DNA from: Centroscyllium fabricii
Lineage: Eukaryota
Reading direction: 5' to 3'
Assembly: GCA_051313645.2 (NCBI GenBank)
Contig: JBNRSN020000024.1
Coordinates: forward strand, 30,752,001 to 30,816,000
Length of the DNA: 64,000 nucleotides
In this document: one piece after another, positions 14,567 through 30,984 of the stretch
Numbering within the stretch: the stretch's first letter is position 1
Layout of the letters: each line of letters starts with the position of its first letter
Notes under the pieces: model-generated
What the model was told of the DNA's origin: nothing
Seen by the model: the letters and a program-made list of their open reading frames with translations, nothing else
The model's database searches: none
Made by a program: the position numbers and the translations under genes

Positions 14567-14980
14567 TAATGCGATCAATGAGCTGTTTAATCTGTTCTGC
14601 ATTTGACGGAGGAAGAAATGTTGGCCAGGACACTTGGAGAACTTCACTGCACTTCAAAATAGTTGCAATGGAATATTTGGCTTGTAGATTGGACCCGAAA
14701 TAGACTCTAGCTCCCTGTGAACCATGAATTTCTGAACAAACTATGCTGACCTTTATTAATCCCCTCTAGTTTCCACAAGGAAAGAGGTTTTCAATCAGTT
14801 CTTTATTCAATTACTCACTGTACCAGTCATTAAATGGACCTCATTAATAATGTGTTTTCTTGCACAAGGTAGGAAACGGAGAAATCCACTTATCTGGTCG
14901 TTTTGCAACATAGAAACCTCCAATAGGAGCTCAGCATTGAAACTGAAGAAGTCATAATAATCAAAATTTTAAAACTTCAC

Positions 14981-15094
14981 CTGTAAACAACCACAGGAAT
15001 CCTTTTCCAAGACCTGAAGGTCCCAACACTCTCCAATTCTTTATCCGTGATCCACACTGGAACTAGCAGCTTTTGGGGATAACTGGCACACATC
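14981..15094 (-). CDS. MTMR4: MTMR4 coding exon (myotubularin phosphatase domain), 114 nt
   Basis: MCASYPQKLLVPVWITDKELESVGTFRSWKRIPVVVY(R); YPQKLLVPVW and RIPVVVYR are MTMR4-type rather than MTMR3-type; acceptor ttgcag, donor gtgaa; phase 2/2; preceded by a 33.4-kb intron. Confidence 0.95.
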
Positions 15095-15357
15095 CTGCAA
15101 AGCCAAATGCAACAAGGTATTAAAAAGGTGAGTTCAGTCCAAAGCCACCTTATGCCAAGAGATACAGACAATAAGGGGTCAATATGAAGGCACAAAACAA
15201 CTTGACAACACAGATGTAGGCAACAACTGTTAAATTCCATCAACTTAATCCAAGACCTTACATTGAGACACAGGCAGCACGGTGTCTATACATTATATTA
15301 CACATACCGTGATTCCAGAGCCTACGCATACATTGCAGACAAGTTACAGTTCTGGGG

Positions 15358-15850
15358 TGAAGTAGAATATTAAAAATTGAGCACATAGAGGGCAAGTATC
15401 AAGATTTATTTGTAGGAAAAGCAGGTCCATAGCAGATGAACTCACAAAGGGTTACAGACTGGAACATGCCAACAGCCTTATGTTTGACTTGCAGAACAGA
15501 GGAAACAAAACTTACAAGCTCTGATGAGTTTCTGCAGAAAACAAAACTTACTGGACAAGATGTTGAGATCACTATGTTATCTATGTGTGTCAGGAGCCAC
15601 TACCGGATAAGTGATTAATGTATAACTCTTTAAATTGATTGGATCTCTGAGGAGGTAGTGCAGCTATTTTGTGTATAAATGTGTGTTTTTTAACGGCTCA
15701 CCGGAGTTGGCTTCATGTAGGGATGTGAAGGGACTCCCCAGGCCTGAAATAAACCGTTGTGACTTCAATCATTGGGTCTGTCTTTCTTTCAACAAGCCAG
15801 TGTCATTGACCTTGCATATCACTTGGTCCGCACTTTGGGGGCTTACTTCA
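15358..15850 (+). repeat. ERV 5' LTR (493 bp)
   Basis: Direct repeat of 22850-23340; TATAAA 15674-15679, AATAAA 15748-15753. Confidence 0.95.
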
Positions 15851-15852
15851 TT

Positions 15853-15870
15853 TGGCGACAAGAATGGGAT
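15853..15870 (+). promoter_or_regulatory. Primer binding site, tRNA-Ser(GCU)
   Basis: TGGCGACAAGAATGGGAT versus TGGCGACGAGGATGGGAT, the complement of the vertebrate tRNA-Ser(GCU) 3' end as I recall it: 16/18 match, 2 nt after the LTR. Confidence 0.8.
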
Positions 15871-16237
15871 GCGCGATCTGAACAAAACTCTCGGACAACG
15901 ATAACCTAAGACCGGTGAGCATGTTTAGATTACCACCTGTAAAATTAGAGGTTAATCGCTGGTGAGAGGCTAAGTAAGATCAACACATAAAAGAACTACA
16001 AAAAAGAGACACCTTTGATTGAAGGCGGTTAAAAGTTACTGGACCGCGGGACCAGAAAACAAAGTAGTTAAAACAGTGTGTTTTAATACTAGAAAGGAGA
16101 AAGAGCCCTTCTTTCAAAAAAAATAATAAAAAAATTTTTTTTTTTTTTAAATCAGTACGGGGTGGGCAGCCCCGGAGTCGAGAAGCAGAAAAAGTAGCCC
16201 GGTCGACAAGGGGCGGGGAGCCTTGGAGTCAGAAGAA

Positions 16238-16575
16238 AGCCGGTAGGCAGCGAATCCGAGAGTGGGAAAACCTGAGCGCCGGTAGGTGGCGAACCCGAGA
16301 GGCAGGAAAACCTCAGAGCCGTGAAGCAACGAACCCAAGAAGCGGGAAAACCTCAGAGCCAGGAAGCAGCGAACCAGAGGCGGGAAAACCTCAGAACCGG
16401 TAGGCGGCAAACCCGAGAGGCGGGAAAACCGCAGAGCCAGTAGGTGGTGAACTCGAGAGGTGGGAAAACGTCAGAGCCAGGAGCGGCGAACCAGAGAGGT
16501 GGGGAAACCTCAGCCGGTAGGCGACGAATCCGAGAGGCGGGGAAACCTCAGAGCTGGGAGGCGGCGAACCCGGGA
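16238..16575 (+). repeat. ~39-bp CpG-rich tandem array in the ERV leader (~9 units)
   Basis: Unit ~CGGTAGGCGGCGAACCCGAGAGGCGGGAAAACCTCAGAGC. Confidence 0.9.
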
Positions 16576-19375
16576 CTGAGTGAATGATTGTACAATCGGG
16601 AGTGAATGAAATAACTCAATAGGCACAAGAAGGTTAAAACCAAAAACCTCGTGACTAAAGGGTTGGTGCGTGTGTTTAACGAAATGCAGTGATTGACAGG
16701 AAGTAAGAGACTAACCAAGTTAACCCTGTAGTGACAAGCAACAGAGTACAAACCTAATTTACCGACAATGTGAATTAAGTGCTAACATAACATTTGGATA
16801 TGACTAAGCAAATGGAGGAAGGACCCTTTGGAGAAATTGGAGGGGGACCCGGGTCCTGTAACATGATATGTCTTTGATAAGGACAAAAGGTTAATAGAGA
16901 AAATGAAAAAAGGGTGGAATCCCAAAGACTGCAGAGAGTCAAAGGGCTTGGTGGAGGGGACAACCCAAAGATAAAAGAGGGAAAAGGGGGAAGGGTAATC
17001 TGAGCTTGTTACCAGAGACAATGTAAGGAATTGAAACGGAAGGAAGAGATAAAGGAAAAAAAAGATCGAATTTGCAGGCTAACCAATCTGAAAACTCAGC
17101 AAAGGAAGGGAAATCAGGGATTTGGAAAGCCAGGAATATCTGCTGAGATACTGATTTAAAAAGAGAAACAAAAGAGAAATTTAAAGCTTTACCGACATGG
17201 AAGTTATTAAAATCTGTGGCAAGGCAAATAAAACGCAAGATTTGCTGAGTGAAAGGAACCTTAAAAAATGCTGGAATTTTACTGTGTGTTAAAAGTGTGA
17301 AAGGTTTTCCTGACTATATTCCTTTCTCGGACAGAGAAAAAAAAATGTCTGCTGTGTGTTTCAGCTCCACCCACTTTTCTGTGTTAAAAAAAACATTTAG
17401 CCCTTTTGTCTTGTTTTGGATTTTGGAAGTTTTAAGAAGGTGCGAATAAGATTGTGCCCCAGAATGAAAAAAACTTTGAACTACAATTTAAGTTAAGCTG
17501 GTGTGTAAAAACTGAAGAATAAAAAAGTTTGTTCAACAAAAGATTAAGTTTCAGTCTAAGATTTAACCTTGGAGCAGTTGCTACGGTGAACTCTTTCAAA
17601 GCAGTTTGATTTGATTTGCTTAAATGTGAAAAACTAATTTTTCTCCAGTTATATTCAATGGTTTACAGTATTTTGGAAAGACATCTGAAGGACAATAAAA
17701 AATGACAATTTATTGTTTTCTGCAAGAATATGCTATTTTGTTTTGTTTTGTCTGTTCATTATTTTACAAAGCTAAGCTTCAGCCTTGAAGTTAGTTGCCA
17801 GTGTGCCTGGAAGAAAATAAATTTGAATGTGAATGTTTACAATTTTCCAAGTAATACTAGTTAGTTAAAAAAATTGATCCGGATTAAATTGGAGTTATGA
17901 GGCTAATTAACCTATTAAAACTAGACTTTTATTGTGGCCACAGAGACATTCTGGTTGGTGTAAATTTGTGTGGACTGCATTGAATAAGATAACCCCACCC
18001 CGCAGAACATCCGATAGTGGCAGGTCCCTTTACAATATTTAATTGACTACGGTACTGGGAGCCCAACATAATGCGGGACTAAAGGTAAACCCTAGAAAGG
18101 TACAGGTAGGGAAGGACAAAGTAATCTCCTTGGATACATAATAACACAAGGGAAGAGACGAATGCCCGATGACAGATGGGAGGGGCATTAGGACCCAGAG
18201 GAGCAGCACCAACCTCTGACTGCGTGCTTTGATTTCTCACAATCCCAAACAGCTAGAAATGGCGGCAGGAAGGAACCGAGCCAGAGAGGGTAGGGGTTAA
18301 GGCAGGTACTAATGTTTTGCTCCACCTTCTTAAAGCCTGCAGAGGAGTTAACCCTTTCCACTGACAGCTGCTTAAGTTCACCAAGCAACAACTTTAGTAT
18401 GAAATTTAAAGATATTGGATATTATTAAATTTAAGTTCTTAATTTTAAGTTAATATTTCCCCACAGTGATGGAGGAAAATTATGATTTGATAAATTAACC
18501 ACTTCGGCTCTAAGCAGTCATAATGGAGTATCTTTTTTTTGTTATATAGAAGTTATCTTGTAAACTAATTGCAGCACCATCTCAAACGGTGGGAAGGCTG
18601 CTTGGGAGACTGTCCTGGTACCCAGAGATCGATCTATAGATAGTTCGAAATATGGGGCAGAATCCAGCCTCCATGATGATCATGGGAGGGGAGGATCACC
18701 AATGTATGAATGAGGAAGAGTCAGAAAATGACAGAGTTAAAATAAAAGAAATACCCCTGGCTGAAGCACACTTGGAGTTATATGTAGATGGGTCCCGAAA
18801 ATCTGTACAGGGAAAGCCGAGGACAGGCTGGGCGGTGGTGACTGGGGATGGAACGATGCTACAAGCCGGAACTCTCCCCAGGGATAAATCCATTCAAGTA
18901 GCGGAATTGACAGCCCTGACGGAAGCCCTGAGGATAGCCGCTGGAAAAAGGGCCAATATTTATATGAACAGCCACTATGCCTTCGGAATAGTGCACGATT
19001 ACATGGCCCCCTGGAGCAGGAGGAGATATATCACCTCAGGGGGAACCTCCCATACAACATATAGACATAGCAAAATCATTGGTGGAAGCCGCGCAGGGGC
19101 CAACAGAGGTGGCTGTAATAAAGGTAAAAGCACACACCAAGGGAAAGAAACCTCAGGAACAAGGTAATAGGGCAGCAGATTTAGCCGCCAAGGCCATGAT
19201 TTAAGTACCATATGCCAGCGCAAAAACAATTGGAGGAACCCCAGTACCCCTTGAGCCCCTTGAGTATAATATTGTCAAATTGCATCAAGAAACACCAGAA
19301 GCCGAGTTAAAAATCTGGGAGGAAAAGGGGCACGGTCAAGGGATGGGGTATGGAGAAAAGGTGGTCGGATATGTG

Positions 19376-19675
19376 GCATAGTGGTTAGCACTGTTGCCTT
19401 ACAGCACTAGAGACCCGGGTTCAAATCCAGCCTCGGGTGACTATCTGTGTGGAGTTTGCACATTCTCCCCGTGTCTGCGTGAGTTTCCTCCGGGTGCTCC
19501 GGTTTCCTCCCATAGTCCAAAGATGTGCGGGTTAGGTTGATTGGCCAGGATAAATTGACCCTTAGTGTTAGGGGGATTGAATATGTGGGGTTACGGGGAT
19601 AGGGTGGGATATGTGTCGGTGCGGGCTCGATAGGCCGAAATGGCCTCTATCTGCACTGTAGGGATTCTATGATTC
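19376..19675 (+). mobile_element. V-SINE (HE1-like) with short GATTCTAT tail, inserted in ERV integrase
   Basis: TSD TATGTG; removing it restores GRICAPSCIQEELMRLYH. Confidence 0.92.
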
Positions 19676-20601
19676 TATGTGCACCCAGCTGTATTCAAGA
19701 AGAACTAATGAGATTATACCACAGGTGGGCTCACACCGGGGCCAGCCACATGATAGATAATTTAGGCCGATGTAGGTGGTGGCCCGGACTATCAAATAGT
19801 GTGAGGAAGTATTGCAAGGCTTGCCACATTTGTGCGCAATGCAATACTGGGAGGCCGGTGAAGGTAAAGTGGGGCAGACAGCCAAGACCACAGGGACCCT
19901 GGGATAAAATACAAATTGACTTCACAGGGCCCATAGTGAAGAGCAAAGGAAAAATATATTGTTTGGTGATAATTGACCAGTTTACCCGGTGGGTGGAGGC
20001 TTTCACCACCTGAAACTGTACCGCGGGCAGAAGAAATAATATCCAGGTGGGGAGTCACCTTACAAATCGACTCAGATAATGGGACACACTTTACGGGGAA
20101 GGCAATGAAGGAAGCATGTGCCCTACGAGGGGTAAAACAAAGGTTCCATATACCGTAGCACCCGGAGAGTTCGGGCATAGTAGAGAGGATGAACCGGACA
20201 TTAAAACGATCCCTCACTAAAGCAATCATAGAAACAGGACAAGGCTGGGCAAAATTATTGCCCACAATTCTGATGAGGCAGAGAGCCACACCAAATAGGA
20301 CAACTGGACTAACCCCTTTTGAGCTAATGACGGGAAGGGCCATGGCACTCCCCGAAGGAATAGTCACAAGAGGGGAGGACGTAGAGCCTTTAAAAGACAG
20401 ACTTGGTAGGTTTGTGAAGCAATTATGTACAGAACTACACGGGTTAAGGTAGGAAGCCCGAGACCAATGTATGTTCTATGTTCTATGTTCTATAATCAGG
20501 GACTTGGAAAAAGACACAGAGGAACACCTGGGGTGGGAAGCCAGGTAATGTCCAGAATCGTACCAGTGAAACTGGGACTGCGGCCCCGGTGGGAAGGACC
20601 A

Positions 20602-21003
20602 TATAGAAACATAGAAGACAGGAGCAGGAGTAGGCCATTCGGCCCTTCGAGCCTGCTCCGCCATTCAATGAGATCATGGCTGATCATCCAAACCCAGTAC
20701 CCCGCCCCTGCCCTCTCCCCAATCCCTCGATCCCTATCGAGCCTACACCGACACATAGCCCACCCTATCCCCGTATCCCCACATATTCAATCCCCCTAAC
20801 ACTAAGGGTCAATTTATCCTGGCCAATCAACCTAACTCGCACATCTTTGGACTGTGGGAGGAAACCGGAGCATCCGGAGGAAACCCACGCAGACACGGGG
20901 AGAATGTGCAAACTCCACACAGATAGTCACCCGAGGCTGGATTTGAACCCGGGTCTCCAGTGCTGTGAGGCAACAGTGCTAACCACTGTGCCACCGTGCC
21001 GCC
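20602..21003 (-). mobile_element. V-SINE with long CR1 tail, inserted in the ERV integrase GPY motif
   Basis: Splits RWEGPY from EVLMTSD; A/B boxes and V-domain present. Confidence 0.92.
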
Positions 21004-21105
21004 CTTATGAGGTGTTAATGACCAGTGATACCTGTGCATGTGTAGACACACACGGCACAGGAAGGTGGAAACACTGGACACAGCTGAAATTATATAAGAA
21101 TTCCA

Positions 21106-21372
21106 ATGAGTAGTCCTGAAATTATACCTTCCATGGAGAGCGAGGATTACTTGTGCAGGGTCCAGCAGGAAAGGGAGGACCTCGTGCTCGTGCTAATAAC
21201 ATTATGCTGCATGGTGCTAGTAGTATCCTTTGTAGTTTGTATATTTAAATACATCTGGGAAAGCAGCCAGGAGGGAAGGGGCATGCACCCACCAGTGAAT
21301 CAACCAAGCGAAATGATCGAATTAGTAAGGATAAATTGGAAACCAGAATTAGTATGTATTTGTATAATCTGA
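21106..21372 (+). CDS. Putative ERV accessory ORF, 88 aa, one transmembrane segment
   Basis: ATG overlaps the pol stop; hydrophobic LVLVLITLCCMVLVVSFVVCIF; no internal stops. Confidence 0.45.
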   Translation: MSSPEIIPSMESEDYLCRVQQEREDLVLVLITLCCMVLVVSFVVCIFKYIWESSQEGRGMHPPVNQPSEMIELVRINWKPELVCICII

Positions 21373-21701
21373 ATGACTGTGATTAATGTATACATACATA
21401 TTAGAAAAGATGGCAGGATAGAATGAGGGCACGGGATGACATTGGGCCCGAAATGATAGCAGTAAGATTGGACTAATCAATCGCTGGTGACAACCAGCCT
21501 TGTATTTCCACAGAACAGGCCAAAGGAGGAACTGAACGACGAAGACAGCCGACAGGCAACAAACAGAATGATTAAGTATTTGTTTGTATGTGGCCTTCTA
21601 GGCCTGAGTGCACTCGGTAATGAGGAAGGAAAACCCAAAAGGATAGGGAATAGTTATCTGTACATGTCATGGAAGTATGCAAGTCAGCGAAATCTCAAGC
21701 T

Positions 21702-21881
21702 AAGAACCGAAAATGCTGGAAAAACTCAGCAGGCCAGGCAGCATCGGTGGAGAAATACAGAGTCGACGTTTCGGGTTGGGACCCTTTATCAAAACTAAAG
21801 CTGGGGAATGAAACACAAGCAGGAAGGCGGGGGGAGGTGGGAGGGAACAAAGAGCAGACAGTACAAAGAGAAAAGACTTGG
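21702..21881 (-). mobile_element. Short Penelope pLTR fragment inserted in env
   Basis: Reverse complement matches the pLTR at 14430-14520; bounded by AGCT on both sides. Confidence 0.8.
21761..21796 (-). ncRNA. Minimal hammerhead ribozyme variant (U3/A8 core)
   Basis: AGTT-TTGATAA-A-GGGT/CCCA/ACCC-GAAA-CG-TC-GACT. Confidence 0.55.
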
Positions 21882-22837
21882 AGCTGTTGGGTTTGCACCA
21901 GGGTCCCAACACACAAGGGAAGGGATCCCCCATGGTGGCAGGCTAGGGGATATGAATACCCCGAAATGGTCGAATGGTTGGTAAAACAGAACACCAGCCA
22001 TGGTAACTATTCATGGGTAAAGAAAATGTGGACGAGGATGTGGAGGTCAGCCGGGTACCCGATGCAACCAGGCCACCTCCCTCGTCAACACTGATGGGAG
22101 AGCACAGGGGAACATGGTGTCTTAACAAAACCAGAAGCAAGGGGCAGTTGATGGGGTGGAGCACCTGTGATAACTTCATTGAAGTAGAGGTAGATTTAAT
22201 AGTCAAAAATGGTGTAGTCGTTCCATCAGGGGTCAGGATGGTTGGGGGCATTGGGTGCCTCAGTGATACAATGCATAATGATATTCCTCGTGATTGATAT
22301 TGCAATATACCGTGTATTTTTGCTGATCAAGTGCCTCTGTACTAGAATGAGTAAAACTGCTGTGACAGAAGCCGGAAATAAGGAGGTTGAGAAGTTAAGT
22401 ATGGGAAACTCCTTTACCTCACCAACGCAAATGGTGCAGGACTTGATTCGAAGCCCCGAAATTACAAGGGATTAATCGGATATGGTAATTAATGACCGGG
22501 CAGGCCGGTCATAAGACAGGGGTGGCAGAAGAGGGAGTGATGTGTGATGACGGTCACGGAAGGACACGTCACACACCCACCGAGAGAGTGAATGACGAGC
22601 TGGAAACAGAAGCTCGAGCCATTAATGCAGGGCCTAAGGATCCCGGGAATGGCCACAACGGAATCGAGGAGAGGAAAACAGGAAGACCACCATACCGTGG
22701 AAGTCGGCCTCCAAATTGGTAGTTTAGGGACACATGTATAACCTCGACTGGTAAAAGACCGGGCATGTGCACCTCTGGCAGACACTACGACATGGAAATA
22801 CATGTTGACCTATATTGGAACAATTGTCCAAAAGGTC

Positions 22838-22848
22838 AAAAGGGGGGA
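22838..22848 (+). promoter_or_regulatory. Polypurine tract
   Basis: AAAAGGGGGGA just before the 3' LTR. Confidence 0.9.
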
Positions 22849-22849
22849 C

Positions 22850-23340
22850 TGAAGTATAATATCAAAAATAGAACATACAGGGCAAGTATCAATATTTATT
22901 TGTAGGAAAAGCAGGTCCATAGCAGATGAACTCACAAAGTGTTAGACTGGAACATGCTAACAGCCTTATGCTTGACTTGCAGAACAGAGGAAACAAAACT
23001 TACAAGCTCTGACGAGTTTCTGCAGAAAACAAAACTTACTAGACAAGATATTGAGATCACTATGTTATCTATATGTGTCAGGAGCCACTCCCGGATAAGT
23101 GATTAATGTATAACTCTTTAAATTGGTTGGATCTACGAGGAGGTAGTGCAGCTATTTTGTGTATAAATGTATGTGTTTTTTAACGGCTCACCAGAGTTGG
23201 CTTCATGTAGGGATGTGAAGGGACTCCCCAGGCCTGAAATAAACCGTTGTGATTTCAATCATTGGGTCGGTCTTTCTTTCAACAAGCCAGTGTTGTCGAC
23301 CTTGTATATCACTTGGTCTGCACTTTGGGGACTTACTTCA
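22850..23340 (+). repeat. ERV 3' LTR (491 bp)
   Basis: About 25 substitutions and 3 small indels versus the 5' LTR, counted by eye. Confidence 0.95.
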
Positions 23341-23849
23341 TGGGGCTATATATGCATTACACTACACACACATTGTAGTCCCAGTACCCCGTGTATGCAT
23401 TATATTACATGCAATGTGGTTCCAGTGTCGCTGTGTATACATTGTATTGCCCACATATTGCAGGTGCAGAGCCCCACATATACATTATATTACAGAAGCA
23501 GTGGTTCTGGGGTGCCCAGTATACACATTGTATTATAAACAGCATGGTTTCGGGGTCGCTTATGTAAAAATTATACGATACAAATAGAATTAATTCCATG
23601 GCCCATCATGCATACATTATATTACACACACGCAGTGGTTTCAGGTTCCTTGCACATGTATACACACTGTGGTAAGTTGCCCCATGTGTACACATATTAC
23701 ACTATACATACCTAATGAATCCAGTTCCTCGTGTATACATATTATACATACAAAGTGATTCTGGGACCCCATATATATATATTACACACACTCGGGGTTT
23801 CTGTAGGTTTTATAGTACACACGCTGCGGCTCAGATTTATGTACATATT

Positions 23850-24796
23850 GGGCCAAATTTGATGAAAAAAATAACAGCATGTGAATGTGCAAATCAGCCA
23901 GCAATATGTAGCAAGGAAAACATTCTCCATGAATTGCAAATTGCCACAAGTTGCTGGATAATTTGCGGTGCTCCGCTCCATCTCGCCTTTAACTTTCCCA
24001 TGAGTTTCATGAAGTTGCTGCATTTGCACATTAATTGCCCATTAAAATTGCCACACAGTTAAGTTTTGTAATCAGTACAATAAGTACCCTTTTAACAACA
24101 TGATACAGGAAACTCTCTTTTAACCGGCATCTAAATATCTGGAAATCTCTCAAGCGGCAAAATTCAGGGGTAGGTTCAGGTAAGTTTAACTATTAGTGGC
24201 CGTGTAACCCGGGTTTCTGGATCTGTGGCCGTGTAACCGGGTCTCCTGCACAAGTGCCGTGTAACCGAGGCTCCTACACCTGTGGCCGTGTACGGGGCTC
24301 TCGTACCTTGCTAAGTATACCTCTCTGTAATCCGGACTTTTTGATCAACTGGCACCACGCCGGTCCCGTCAGTGCCGGATAAAAATAGAGTTCCCTGTAA
24401 TTGATAATTACTGCTAATCAATCTCTCTGGCCCAGAAAGGGAACAATTTAATGTGGAGGTGGCAAAATTGTTCTTAAAAAAAAATTTACGTCCATTTTTT
24501 TCTTTCTTAATCCAATCTTTCTTTCCATCTCTATTTCTCTCTGTACCTGATTTAACATTGAATTCACCCTCCTTCTCGGTCCTTCCTCTGTTTATTCCTC
24601 AATCCTTAAATCTCACTGGTTAAGGAAATACACAGTTTGTCCCATTGTTCACTAAAGTCCTAGATGCCCTGCTGTCCTCACCAAGCTGTACTTCCAGCAA
24701 CTTAAATGGCAAAACATTTTTGAGCTGAAGGGTGCAGGCAAACGTTTAACTAACCAGGCACGCTGCGATATGCTCTGCTCCAGCAAATTCCAGCCC
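23850..24796. mobile_element. Non-autonomous DNA transposon (PIF/Harbinger-like)
   Basis: Imperfect TIRs GGGCCAAATTTG / CAAATTCCAGCCC; 3-bp TSD ATT; minisatellite resumes after it. Confidence 0.6.
24106..24397. mobile_element. Tc1/mariner-type MITE nested in the above
   Basis: TIR CAGGAAACTCT...AGAGTTCCCTG, TA TSD, internal ~32-bp repeats gtggccgtgtaacc. Confidence 0.85.
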
Positions 24797-25519
24797 ATTA
24801 TATCTCTCACACTGTGGCTCAGAGTTCCTTTATGTACATATTATATCTCACACACACTGGTTCCAGTGCTGCTCATGTATATATTACATTATACACGTCA
24901 TGGTCCCGGGTCCCTTGTGTAAATACTACATTACACACACCCTATGGTTCCAATGCCAGTCGTGTAAATTTCACATTGGTGGCTTCAGTAGGGATGTTGT
25001 CTCCACCAGCTATCCCTCTGAACTGCTGGCCCTTTTTGTGACAGGAAGTTTAAAGTGGAGGGATGATTTCCAAAAGTAGGAACACCCTTTCATTATTCCA
25101 CACCTGATGCTCAAGAACATTTAATAGGAACAGGAGTAGGCCATTCAGCCATTCAAGCCTGTACTGCCATTCAATGAGATAATGGCGGAACTGTACCTCC
25201 GCTCCATTTACCTGCCTTGGTCCGTATCTCTCAATACCCTTACCCAACAGAAATCTATCGATCTGACTGTGACTAGCTGAACAGTGTTTGTACAGTGCAG
25301 CTGACTCTCAGTATCTTGTAGAGTGAGACACAGGGAACTGTAGAGGGTGGGGAGCAGCCAGTGAGTGGCAGAGGGTAGAGCAGGGGGGACTGGGGTGTGG
25401 AAAATTTTAGGGAGCAGGGTGCAGCCAGTGACTGGTAGAGCATGGAGTAGCAGGCTTGAGGGAGCGAGGTGTAGAAAGTGACTTGCACAGCATGCAGTAG
25501 GGGACGGTGGGGAGTTGAC

Positions 25520-27228: not shown

Positions 27229-29692
27229 TTCAATTCAATTTTTATTGTCATTGCAGAGTACTAGCACAATACAACGAGACGAAGACTCGACTCTCCCGAG
27301 AGTAGTGCAAATAAATTACATGCAAATTGCATACAGTAAAGTACATTATCAGGCGTGCAGGTACCGGAGTTTATTTTTTTTAAATTTTTTTAAGAGTTCA
27401 GGAGGCTGACAGCCCTGGGGAAGAAGCTGTTCTGAAATCGAGTCGTGCGGGTGCGAATTGCTCTGTAGCGTCTCCCGGAGGGCAGGGGGGTGAACAGACT
27501 GTGGCTGGGGTGTGTGGGGTCTTTAATAATATTCAGAGACCTCCGTAAGCAGCGTTTGAGGTAGATGCCTTCCATTGACGGTAGCTGGGTACCGGTGATT
27601 CGTTGGGCAGTTTTGACTACCCGCTGCAGGGTTTTCCGGTCCAAGATAGTGCAATTTCCATACCAGACAGTGATGCAGCTTGTCAGTATGCTTTCTATTG
27701 TGCAGCGGTAGAAGTTGGAGAGGATGCCGGATGACAGCCTGGCTTTCTTCAGCTTCCTTAGGAAGTACAGGCGCTGTTGGGCCTTCTTAACCAGAGAGGA
27801 GGTATTTAGTGACCAGGAGAGATCTTCTGAGATGTGGAGCCCGAGGAACTTGAAGCTGGACACCCTTTCCACCTCAGCCCCTTGGATGAAGATGGGGGTG
27901 TGTCTTCTGCTTCCAGTCCTCCGGAAGTCCACTATGATCTCCTTAGTTTTCTTGGTGTTCAGTGCCAGGTTGTTGTCGGCACACCAACCCACAAGGCGCT
28001 GGATCTCATCCCTGTAGGCTGACTCGTCGTTGTTGGTGATCTGGCCAACCACCGTGGTGTCATCCGCAAACTTGATGATCGTGTTGGAGCCATGGACAGC
28101 CGCACAGTCGTGAGTGAAGAGGGAGTAGAGGAGGGGGCTCAGCACACAACCTTGTGGGGCCCCCATGTTCAGGGTAAGGCGGGGGAGGTGAGGTTGCCTA
28201 ACTTCACAGACTGTGGTCTGTTGGTTAGGAAGTCCAGGGTCCAGTTGCAGAGGGAGGTGTTCAGGCCGAGGGTGAGGAGTTTGGTAGACAATTTGCTGGG
28301 GACGATGGTGTTGAATGCTGAGCTGTAGTCAATAAACAGCATTCTGATATACGTATCTTTGCTATCCAGGTGGTTTAGTGCAGAGTGAAGAGCCGTAGTG
28401 ATAGCATCTTCTGTAGATCTTTTCCCACGGTAGGCGAACTGGTATTGGTCCAGGGCGGCGGGGATGCTGGCTTTGATGTGGGCCAGGACCAGCCGCTCGA
28501 AACACTTCATGATAATGGATGTAAGTGCGACAGGGCGGTAGTCGTTCAGGCACGTCACGGCCGTTTTCTTGGGCACAGTGATGATGGTGGCGGTCTTGAA
28601 GCAGATAGGGACAGCTGCCTTCGCCAGTGACAGGTTGAAGATGTCAGTGAAGACTTCAGCCAGTTGGTTGGCACATTCTTTGAGTGCCCGGCCGGGGATG
28701 CCATCAGGACACGCGGCCTTCCGTGCGTTCACTCTACGTAGAGCACCTCTAACGTCGGAGCAGGACAGTGTTAATGGCTGGTCTTCTGGGGATTGCAGGA
28801 CTTTGGTGGCTGGCTCCCTGTTGTCCCTGTCGAAGCGAGCGTAGAAGTTGTTGAGTTCCTCCGGTAGGGAAGCATCGCCGGTCGGGGGGCTGGTGTTTCT
28901 GCACTTGTAGTCTGTGATGGACTGTATGCCTTGCCACATACGTCGAGGGTCCGAGTTGTTGTGAAAGTGTTCCTCTATCTTCAGTGTCTGATTTTGTTTG
29001 GCAGACCTGATACCCCTCTTTAGGTTGGCCCTGGCTATGCTGTAAGCCGCCACATCCCCAGATTTTAAAGCTGTGTCACGCGCCTTCAGCAGCGAGCGGT
29101 CCTCCCCGTTCATCCAGGGTTTCTGGTTGGGGAATGTCTTGATGGTTTTTTGGGTAGTGACCACCTCGACACAGCTGTTGATGTAAAAAAGCACTGTGGA
29201 TGCGTATTCCTCGATGTCCGTGTGAGCGAACATGCTCCATTCAGTGCGTTCAAAGCAGTCTTGTAGCTCCGAGACTGCCCCTTCTGGCCATACCATGACT
29301 GTTTTGGTTGAAGCTTTCACCCTTTTGATGAGTGGTTTGTATGCTGGGGCGAGGAACAGTGAAAGGTGGTCGGAATTCCCGAGGTGGGGGCACGGGATGG
29401 CTTTGTAAGCCTCTGCAATGTTGGTGTAGACTTGGTCTAGTGTGTTCTCGCCCCTCGTGGGGCAGGAGACATTCTTGTGAAATTTTGGTAGCACCGATTT
29501 GAGGTTAGCGTGGTTGAAGTCCCCCGCCACGATAAAGGCTCCCTCAGGATGCTCGGTCTGCTGCTCGCTGATGGCCCTGTGGAGATCTTTGAGTGCCAGT
29601 TTGGTATGTAGACCGCAGTGAAGATGACGGCCGTAAATTCCCGAGGCAGGTAGAAGGGTCTGCACTTTACAGTGAGGAATTCCAGATCGGCG
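27229..29692 (-). mobile_element. Rex1/Babar-clade LINE, 5'-truncated, young
   Basis: 498-aa and 258-aa ORFs: AGDFN, TLDQVY, SDH endonuclease end; DYSSAFNTI, GAPQGCVLSPLLYSL, KFADD; KKAQQRLYFLRKL; (TTGAA)n tail; TATA flanks. Confidence 0.92.
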
Positions 29693-30984
29693 TATAATGG
29701 AGGAACCACCTCAGTTTAGACACTTAAAGCAGGAGTAACATAAACAAAATGACCATTGAGTTTCCTGACTATATGTTCCCCTCACCAGAGGTTACTCTCA
29801 TTCGCATAAACGTCTGTGACATTCTTTTTTAAATGAATTTGTTCAAATGTTACTGAATGTTGGGTCATCTCTTGTAATTGCTTCCATTGCATGGAGTCAA
29901 TATTATGGACAGTCACCTACACCTTTCAAAACAGCAACAGAAAGGTTTAAATCTTTAATATGATCAATATCTAACAGATCCCACTGGTGGACCAGCACTA
30001 TAAACCGAGATTAAACTAATCACTGGATATTAGGAGGTTTTAGAATTCCAGCCCTTTTATCATTAGCCAACAGACCTTCCTACTTTCTACATTTTCCCAC
30101 ATATTTACATTCAATTCCCCCATTTCCTAATACCGCCCTCTGTTCCTCTTTTGGTTGTTATGAATGTTCTGTTACAGAATCACAAACCACCACTCCCCAG
30201 GTTAGGTGATAACATGGATTAAGCGTTGACCATAACGCTTGCACCTCTCAACCATTTACATTTAATGGGATATCCCAGCATTACACATCATCACTGAGAA
30301 GAACAGTGGTGTGCAAGGCTCCCAAGCAACCAAAACCAGCTGAATTGCTAGTTCTACAGAGTGCTAGCACTCCCGCCTGAAGCACTGACCTGAATTCCAG
30401 CCTTTCAACACATTATAGATTGAAGCATGGTTACACTAATTGTTTCAGATTTCAGCATGGAGTGGATTTAATTTTTAAACACATTCCATTCAACCATCTC
30501 CCTGGATTTAGTAGGTTGTGAACACAGCCTCGCTGATTCAGCAGTACAGAAATACATGTAGTAAAGGTATTTTCTGTCATGAACATTTGTCCATTTAGGA
30601 CTGATGTAAAGGCAGTGATGACAGAACCTGATCTTGGGAACTGAAAAGTACTGAAGATTTGGACAGGTCCTTCACAATGCCCCTGTTCCATATATACTTC
30701 AAGGTCGTGCTTCACCTTGAGCTTTTCTGCTTTGCTATCATTTAATTACAGAAAATGCAGCATATTCCAGTGCATACCCATCTGTTGCTGCATAATCGTT
30801 CCAACTACTTAGTACAAGATGGAGGAAAATGGGACAGGGTGGGTAAATGTGATAAGGACTATTCGCATGAAGAGCGAACACTGACTGGTTGGGCCAAATG
30901 GCCTATTGCCGTGTTGTAATTTGTATGCACGAGAATCTTAACACACAGGTTGGTCCATCTGCATCTCCTTACGAGCTTTCTTGT

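Follow-up and report, generated by a model that had tools for sequence, protein, structure and literature searches.

A probable accessory gene, apparently undescribed, between pol and env in a family of shark endogenous retroviruses

The provirus at positions 15,358 to 23,340 of a 64,000-nucleotide (nt) stretch of the genome of the shark Centroscyllium fabricii (assembly GCA_051313645.2, contig JBNRSN020000024.1, positions 30,752,001 to 30,816,000 of the forward strand; this whole stretch is hereafter the window) raises two questions: whether the space around its envelope gene holds a further gene, and to which class of retroviruses it belongs. An earlier note, made from the sequence alone, had described it as a class III-like endogenous retrovirus (ERV) of an under-described complex lineage, with extra open reading frame (ORF) space both before and after env. 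Genome-wide searches for relatives of the element and of the candidate gene covered the 7.2-Gb genome containing the window. The claim of a complex lineage with extra coding space stands for the region before env, which very probably holds one accessory gene, here called X, but not for the region after env, where no coding signal and no gene were found.

X begins at an ATG at 21106, which overlaps the end of pol, and forms a 77-codon frame; the window copy reads on to 88 codons (21372). The window's X protein gave 119 matches in the genome, and the X protein of lineage 4 at least 150. Sixty matches were fetched, mostly chosen by similarity to X. X falls in six lineages of 68-77 residues that are 27-67% identical over the first 55 residues, and the pol stop lies mostly 5 or 14 bases after the X ATG. 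Among the last 20 copies fetched, 18 begin with the ATG at the pol end; an insertion has removed the start of another, and the remaining copy is ambiguous. When 38 copies from three lineages were aligned as DNA alone, the 19 gaps within X all measured 6 or 9 nt, and third positions diverged most. In the X frame, the ratio of nonsynonymous to synonymous change (dN/dS) across three lineages is bounded above by 0.33-0.37, whereas the point values for the other two forward frames are 0.61-1.75; the reverse frame that shares the third positions of X also gives a low ratio, as expected. Within the family of the window provirus (family 1), dN/dS is 0.35 (0.23-0.52) for X, 0.24 for integrase, 0.32 for the transmembrane subunit (TM) of env, and 0.60-0.86 for non-coding controls.

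Two matches came from a profile search with X over 1.84 billion representatives. P0279 is an unnamed homologue from outside the genome (E 1e-14) that likewise sits at the end of pol and terminates in ExxxMV; P0278 was rejected as a tandem-repeat artefact. A word-based homologue search with X found none, and no match to X was seen in Pfam, in the viral fold library, among the reference viruses (including L105, of the snakehead retrovirus (SnRV) type), or in a first scan of viral contigs. Several observations weigh against a functional gene: the codon periodicity of X inside family 1 alone is borderline (P 0.058), only 3 of the 20 family-1 loci picked by integrase keep X at full length, and picking copies by similarity to X favours intact frames. 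On balance, we are highly confident that X is a real protein-coding gene, and the sequences point to gag-pol-X-env as the genome plan of the family. No account of such a gene in shark ERVs was found in the literature covered, outside which most subscription papers fall; the supplements of 10.1101/2021.11.23.469661, PMC4422223 and PMC7947760 could carry an annotation of it. As an element, the provirus is of a known kind; what is apparently undescribed is its accessory gene.

X appears to be accessory, judging from its pattern of loss. Most of the other integrase-picked family-1 loci share a frameshift and a deletion in X (subfamily 1B), and env TM is still under selection in family-1 loci where X is broken. 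No trace of X was found in five loci of family 2, the youngest. In a quick tree, family 2 groups with the X-bearing family 3, and the X-bearing family 1 falls outside both; this topology suggests that X was lost twice independently. Lineage 4 (L089:4267-5884, L092:4060-5772, L093:4466-6138, L226, and L227) combines the same pol type and X with an unrelated envelope. In a language-model comparison, that envelope scored 0.96 to clusters of baculovirus/paramyxovirus F proteins, with low recognition; it had no Pfam or PDB match, and its fold model (pLDDT 34) was unusable. The lineage-4 envelope is probably F-type, and a swap between gamma-type and F-type envelopes in X-bearing lineages is suggested. 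Since two unrelated envelopes are found downstream of X, the gene is not bound to a single Env.

The X protein starts with an acidic N-terminal part of 25 residues, followed by one hydrophobic helix that carries conserved cysteines; next come a stretch of neutral to basic charge and, at the end, a short helix. Its hydrophobic 19-mer scores 2.5-3.6, and an AlphaFold model places a long helix at residues 8-59 and a short one at 68-76. The net charge is -3 to -5 before the helix and 0 to +4 after it, and because of this bias an N-out/C-in topology is predicted. Within the short C-terminal helix, ExxxL[LIV] occurs in 16/20, 9/14, 5/7, and 8/9 copies of four lineages, where shuffled X tails give 0.11-0.5 expected occurrences. 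The motif stays C-terminal though the linker shortens by 2-9 residues, and synonymous differences occur among its codons.

Mammalian retroviruses are known to encode small accessory proteins, among them Vpu, Nef, S2, and glycoGag, which hijack clathrin adaptors, and the S2 gene of equine infectious anaemia virus (EIAV) sits between pol and env. A comparable role may be proposed for X. The protein would be translated from a spliced mRNA or by reinitiation at the overlapping pol stop, and would sit in the membrane as a single-pass protein with its N-terminus outside and its C-terminus inside. Its C-terminal ExxxLV would recruit clathrin adaptors, and this recruitment would take a host membrane protein off the cell surface in the style of Vpu or S2. 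Candidate targets, by analogy only, are tetherin, SERINC, or an entry receptor. X is like HIV-1 Vpu in having about 80 amino acids, one membrane span, a position directly 5' of env, and ExxxLV in a C-terminal helix, as described in the accessible parts of PMC3315493 and PMC4576185; the former reports that Vpu needs ExxxLV to clear tetherin. Unlike Vpu, X has a 25-residue ectodomain and a central helix, and shows no DSGxxS and no sequence kinship. For Nef and EIAV S2, the available portion of PMC11788155 describes ExxxLL as serving against SERINC5, with the host protein sent to endosomes. X resembles these two as a dispensable retroviral accessory protein with an acidic dileucine motif; unlike them (they are myristoylated and soluble), it is a predicted integral membrane protein.

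Other observations count against this proposal. The motif is found in only one of six lineage-4 copies and is missing in the single lineage-7 copy, and since the X lineages share one ancestor, it arose once. The V-R codons that close X also spell the donor-like GT[AG]AG, which may explain part of their conservation. In lineages 1A and 3, no conserved strong acceptor was found in the 700 nt 5' of X. Kinship with Vpu reached only a Pfam E of 0.12 in one of 16 sequences, and the helix of X is central, not N-terminal as in Vpu. Contigs from three organisms that span the lineage-3 X region show no splice joint and are uninformative on expression. Taking both sides together, we lean modestly towards X as a conserved single-pass membrane accessory factor that, by analogy with Vpu and S2, would recruit clathrin adaptors to clear a host membrane protein. 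A wider scenario is possible though clearly less secure: an undescribed complex fish retrovirus clade between snakehead-like and class I viruses may have evolved its own Vpu-like gene against a shark restriction factor, kept it through the swap between gamma-type and F-type envelopes, and dropped it after settling in the germ line. If true, this would be the deepest-branching retroviral example of counter-defence by adaptor hijack. A gene with this architecture, conserved under selection in shark proviruses, would suggest that cartilaginous fish took part in the same arms race over surface restriction factors, and X offers a 70-residue probe for finding the host target.

The best-surviving of the other explanations, itself unlikely, accepts X as real but makes it an upstream coding exon. 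Splicing from the donor under the V-R codons to the env acceptor would yield either an X-Env leader, which has two membrane spans and is cleaved off in the manner of a stable signal peptide, or, on a bicistronic X/env mRNA, an X protein whose tail is altered. The donor-like GT[AG]AG stands in phase 0 in 14/20, 12/13, 4/7, and 8/9 copies of four lineages. For lineages 1A and 4, the exon that follows the env acceptor can be read in phase 0, without a stop, right into the signal peptide of env, and subfamily 1B, with its broken X, no longer keeps phase into env. However, the phase runs into a stop after 6-15 codons in lineages 3, 5, and 6, which makes an X-Env fusion impossible there. V-R codons yield GTRAG in 43% of cases by codon bias alone, position -1 varies freely, and the stop codons of X are common to members within lineages.

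It is rather improbable that X works as a viroporin or a release factor similar to influenza M2 or coronavirus E; in that case it would oligomerise via its helix and aid budding or protect Env, the tail motif merely setting its location. Its size and its central helix with a 25-residue ectodomain agree with such a protein, and its language-model neighbours include M2 (0.88) and coronavirus E (0.87), both under the line of 0.9 set for leads. The helix, however, is almost purely hydrophobic and has no conserved polar pore-lining residue, and the viral fold library held no structural match.

A role as a small fusogen for cell-to-cell spread, like the fusion-associated small transmembrane (FAST) and sORF2 proteins, is more doubtful still. 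X falls in the same size class and shares the predicted N-out/C-in helix, conserved cysteines, and an amphipathic end; lineages 3 and 4 carry 4-5 basic residues after the helix, and the accessible part of PMC11952523 places such ORFs in long terminal repeat (LTR) retrotransposons, some of them 3' of pol. Yet no X lineage has the Gly2 needed for myristoylation, lineage 1A has only 2-3 basic residues after the helix, and the X viruses keep env, whereas the described sORF2/FAST carriers are without it. Finally, that the frame arises only as a side effect of an RNA element situated between pol and env would fit the borderline family-1 periodicity and the broken or absent X of subfamily 1B and family 2, but is very improbable and largely refuted by saturated synonymous change at 27-67% amino-acid identity, by indels that all keep the frame, by the retention of the ATG at the end of pol across six lineages, and by the outside homologue.

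The second question, the class of the pol lineage, was addressed with trees and pairwise scores. Reference viruses were taken from a viral contig collection; L105 was taken as SnRV by its 205-codon 3' ORF, as in the accessible text of PMC12193657, and the others carry provisional names, based in part on tree position. The trees lacked named ERV-L, ERV-S, and lokiretrovirus references. The closest named pol relatives come from Mustelus asterias and Heterodontus francisci. Both a reverse transcriptase (RT) tree of 84 rows and a tree of RT, RNase H, and integrase with 54 rows group family 1 with cyprinid sequences and its sister families from the shark, outside the gamma+epsilon clade, which has support 100 in the 54-row tree; the integrase piece of the window provirus itself clusters with family 1. 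The earlier note had held that the element is not a gamma or epsilon ERV, and approximately unbiased (AU) tests on a 35-row subset bear this out, rejecting family 1 with epsilon-like viruses (p 4.6e-5) and with gamma+epsilon (p 0.0014). Grouping with foamy viruses is rejected on concatenated pol (p 0.034) but not on RT alone (p 0.45). A position as sister to SnRV, absent from the best trees, is not rejected (p 0.18), nor is a basal one (p 0.17); the SnRV grouping is rejected with the frog group alone (p 0.03) and not with a wider set (p 0.31). A place as sister to all other retroviruses is not the best tree and is not rejected (p 0.34 on RT, 0.17 on concatenated pol); RT alone settles no deep position.

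Among named-type references, the pairwise RT score is highest with the snakehead type (236 bits vs 209 for the murine leukaemia virus type). For the tether, RNase H, and integrase, class I references outscore both the snakehead and the foamy ones, RNase H reaching 85-112 bits to class I vs 31-45 to foamy. For this reason the D..GP motif, on which the class III reading had leaned, is not decisive for class. An integrase PDB match to foamy virus was likewise dropped as class evidence, since pairwise scores favour class I integrases. Class III membership as claimed is unsupported, the hallmarks of dUTPase, zinc-finger-less gag, and YIDD all failing, and it stays unproven in either direction. The sequence data place the family, provisionally, as a basal fish retrovirus between SnRV-like and class I viruses.

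Several known systems invite comparison. The combination of non-class-I pol, gamma-type env, serine primer binding site (PBS), and 5-bp target site duplication (TSD) has already been published for XtERV-S, according to the accessible part of PMC8278194. With XtERV-S, ERV-S, and ERV-L the shark family shares a CXXC near the start of the surface subunit, an immunosuppressive domain (ISD), CX6CC, and a TGA between in-frame gag and pol. Unlike XtERV-S and ERV-L, it has two CCHC zinc knuckles, YVDD instead of YIDD, and LTR ends TGA...TCA; the dUTPase expected for those elements was not found in a Pfam scan of an open family-2 pol. In XtERV-S, env overlaps the pol stop (same source, as far as available), whereas the shark family has the transmembrane gene X between pol and env.

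With SnRV and SnRV-like ERVs the family shares a basal place among fish retroviruses, the best RT score, a complex genome, and a coiled-coil gag; it differs in its pol (32% identity), PBS, and env, and in having no 3' ORF. SnRV-like ERVs are known from the elephant shark as CmiERV lineage I (available parts of PMC4422223 and PMC12193657). The accessible text of 10.1101/2021.11.23.469661 reports gamma-type Env on epsilon- or SnRV-related pol in anamniotes, including six cartilaginous fish; there, epsilon-related ERVs are described as being without an accessory gene, and none is named for the SnRV-related ones. X would qualify this statement on epsilon-related anamniote ERVs if the family falls in that group. 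Lokiretroviruses, in the accessible part of PMC7947760, have an F-type envelope with RXKR-type cleavage and dual RNase H, and the host classes given for them do not include cartilaginous fish. The shark family shares the dual RNase H, and lineage 4 has a probable F-type envelope with RXKR-type cleavage; unlike lokiretroviruses, its RNase H is class I-like instead of foamy-like, and most lineages carry a gamma-type env. It differs from foamy viruses in its gag zinc knuckles and gamma-type env. Annotation based on domains misses genes such as X.

The space after env was judged by the same measures as X. The post-env spacer of 375 nt holds a 76-codon frame followed by a common stop. A gene there was rejected, its dN/dS of 0.55 (0.34-0.88) and 0.44 (0.26-0.86) overlapping the non-coding baseline. 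The frame shows no periodicity (P 0.21 and 0.15), and none appears in net subfamily divergence. An internal stop (TAG/TAA) stands in 23 of the 31 sites read, the rest being scattered single changes, and the frame shifts between subfamilies near its end. Lineage 3 has only about 50 nt between env and the polypurine tract (PPT) and no counterpart of the frame. A 76-codon gene confined to family 1 would still be conceivable. A 146-codon frame at 21654-22094 was also rejected as a gene, being made of env and an inserted repeat.

The window provirus itself is an ordinary dead insertion (Table 1). In a Pfam scan, only its RNase H and integrase remnants score, and the gag, protease, and RT of a sister family find no match in it. 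Compared with 20 integrase-picked family copies, it carries three repeat insertions, which interrupt pol and env, and has lost about 690 nt of env; this deletion, near 22186-22236, removed the furin site, ISD, and CX6CC. The integrase reads PWDKIQIDFTGP and is disrupted by stops, one frameshift, and repeat 2, with the pol stop at 21111-21113. The reading of this integrase and of a gamma-type CWVC env in the earlier note was confirmed in the sequence, and the splice donor, env acceptor, and PPT that it had marked are all present. Other family-1 copies keep gag with two zf-CCHC domains, protease, and RT (YVDD), and their gamma-type env retains the furin site, ISD, and CX6CC. An in-frame stop lies between gag and pol, read as TGA in 3/3 family-2 copies checked and also present in the family-1 copy L029. 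From the gene content of these intact relatives, the plan of the family is therefore gag-stop-pol-env, to which X is added. The window copy, now inert, was likely copied in trans by intact relatives.

The two LTRs have TG...CA ends and 25 differences over 489 aligned sites, a Kimura two-parameter (K2P) distance of 0.053, in agreement with the 5% divergence estimated earlier by eye. With t = d/2u, this gives a loose age estimate of about 12 million years at a mammalian rate to about 120 million at a tenfold slower rate, the latter taken from the accessible part of PMC4422223. The proposed 5-bp TSD was verified on both flanks and is a family-wide trait: 20 LTR matches were examined, of which four are provirus ends, and at the other 16, solo-LTR-type sites, the 5-bp duplication is perfect in 8 and has one mismatch in 5, a single site fits 4 bp, and two gave no clear duplication. 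The PBS, read from the start as tRNA-Ser(GCU), matches the 3' ends of host tRNA-Ser(GCT) genes at 16/18 positions, or 17/18 for one variant, and three sister copies match at 18/18. The trait is labile, because the sister families 2 and 3 are primed by other tRNAs.

Table 1. Features of the provirus and its immediate surroundings, in window coordinates.
Feature	Position	Strand	Evidence
Host myotubularin-family exon next to insertion	14977-15095	-	Pfam PF06602, E 2e-11
TSD TGGGG	left 15353-15357, right 23341-23345	.	exact match on both flanks
5' LTR, 493 nt, TATA-like 15674, AATAAA 15748	15358-15850	+	LTR pair alignment
PBS, tRNA-Ser(GCU)	15853-15870	+	match to host tRNA genes
Major splice donor CG/GTGAG (predicted)	15915-15920	+	donor-like counterpart in 5/6 sister leaders
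Leader 40-nt tandem repeat, 8.5 copies	16238-16572	+	repeat analysis
AT-rich non-coding filler where gag/protease/RT belong	16600-18600	+	no codon periodicity; common to other defective copies
RNase H remnant, split over two frames	18640-19204	+	Pfam PF00075
Repeat 1, inserted, like a short interspersed nuclear element (SINE)	19376-19675	-	missing from at least 17/20 sister copies; inverted match to repeat 2
Integrase remnant (HX3HX29C zinc finger, IQIDFTGP)	19684-21113	+	Pfam
SINE-like repeat 2, inserted	20605-21002	+	comparison with sister copies
Probable accessory gene X of 77 codons; one transmembrane helix, about residues 26-47; ExxxLV, residues 69-74	21106-21336	+	
Donor-like GTAAGG under V-R codons at X end (use putative)	21325-21330	+	
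Env splice acceptor (predicted), AG ending 21513	21498-21513	+	kept 3' of X in five lineages
Gamma-type env remnant: signal peptide, CWVC, membrane anchor, tail	21568-22475	+	
Repeat 3, inserted inside env	21702-21881	.	sister-copy comparison
Post-env spacer with 76-codon frame 22492-22719	22476-22840	+	no coding signal
PPT	22841-22849	+	sequence
3' LTR, 491 nt	22850-23340	+	LTR pair alignment

Several minor observations concern the provirus and its relatives. The tandem repeat in the leader found no match in the 20 sister copies compared. AT-rich filler stands in for gag to RT in many copies (for example L001, L011, L015, L019, L027, L031, L051, L053, and L179); it is common to different pol lineages, which suggests a non-autonomous backbone recombined across families. 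Family 2 (L041-L050) consists of young sisters, with an LTR K2P of 0.003-0.015 in three copies, and some of its copies hold open gag, pol, and env frames. Its gag stop in L045:6469-6477 reads CAG TGA CAA, a context that favours readthrough. Nested gypsy-type insertions and long interspersed nuclear element (LINE) insertions pervade the sister proviruses (L005, L033, L035, L049, L055, L081, and L090), often several per copy. At C667:101.42-101.74 Mb (L192, L201), one family-1 provirus end is repeated in four near-identical copies side by side, likely a segmental duplication.

The host exon beside the provirus is antisense to it, with its acceptor 263 nt from the LTR, as had been noted before; a Pfam match assigns it to the myotubularin family, and the gene is tentatively taken to be MTMR4. 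A degenerate tandem repeat of 40-43 nt surrounds the provirus and is seen on both flanks (15275-15320 and 23350-24970). In the same host gene region, a LINE ORF2 remnant lies on the minus strand at 27390-29710, with open frames of 513 and 312 codons.

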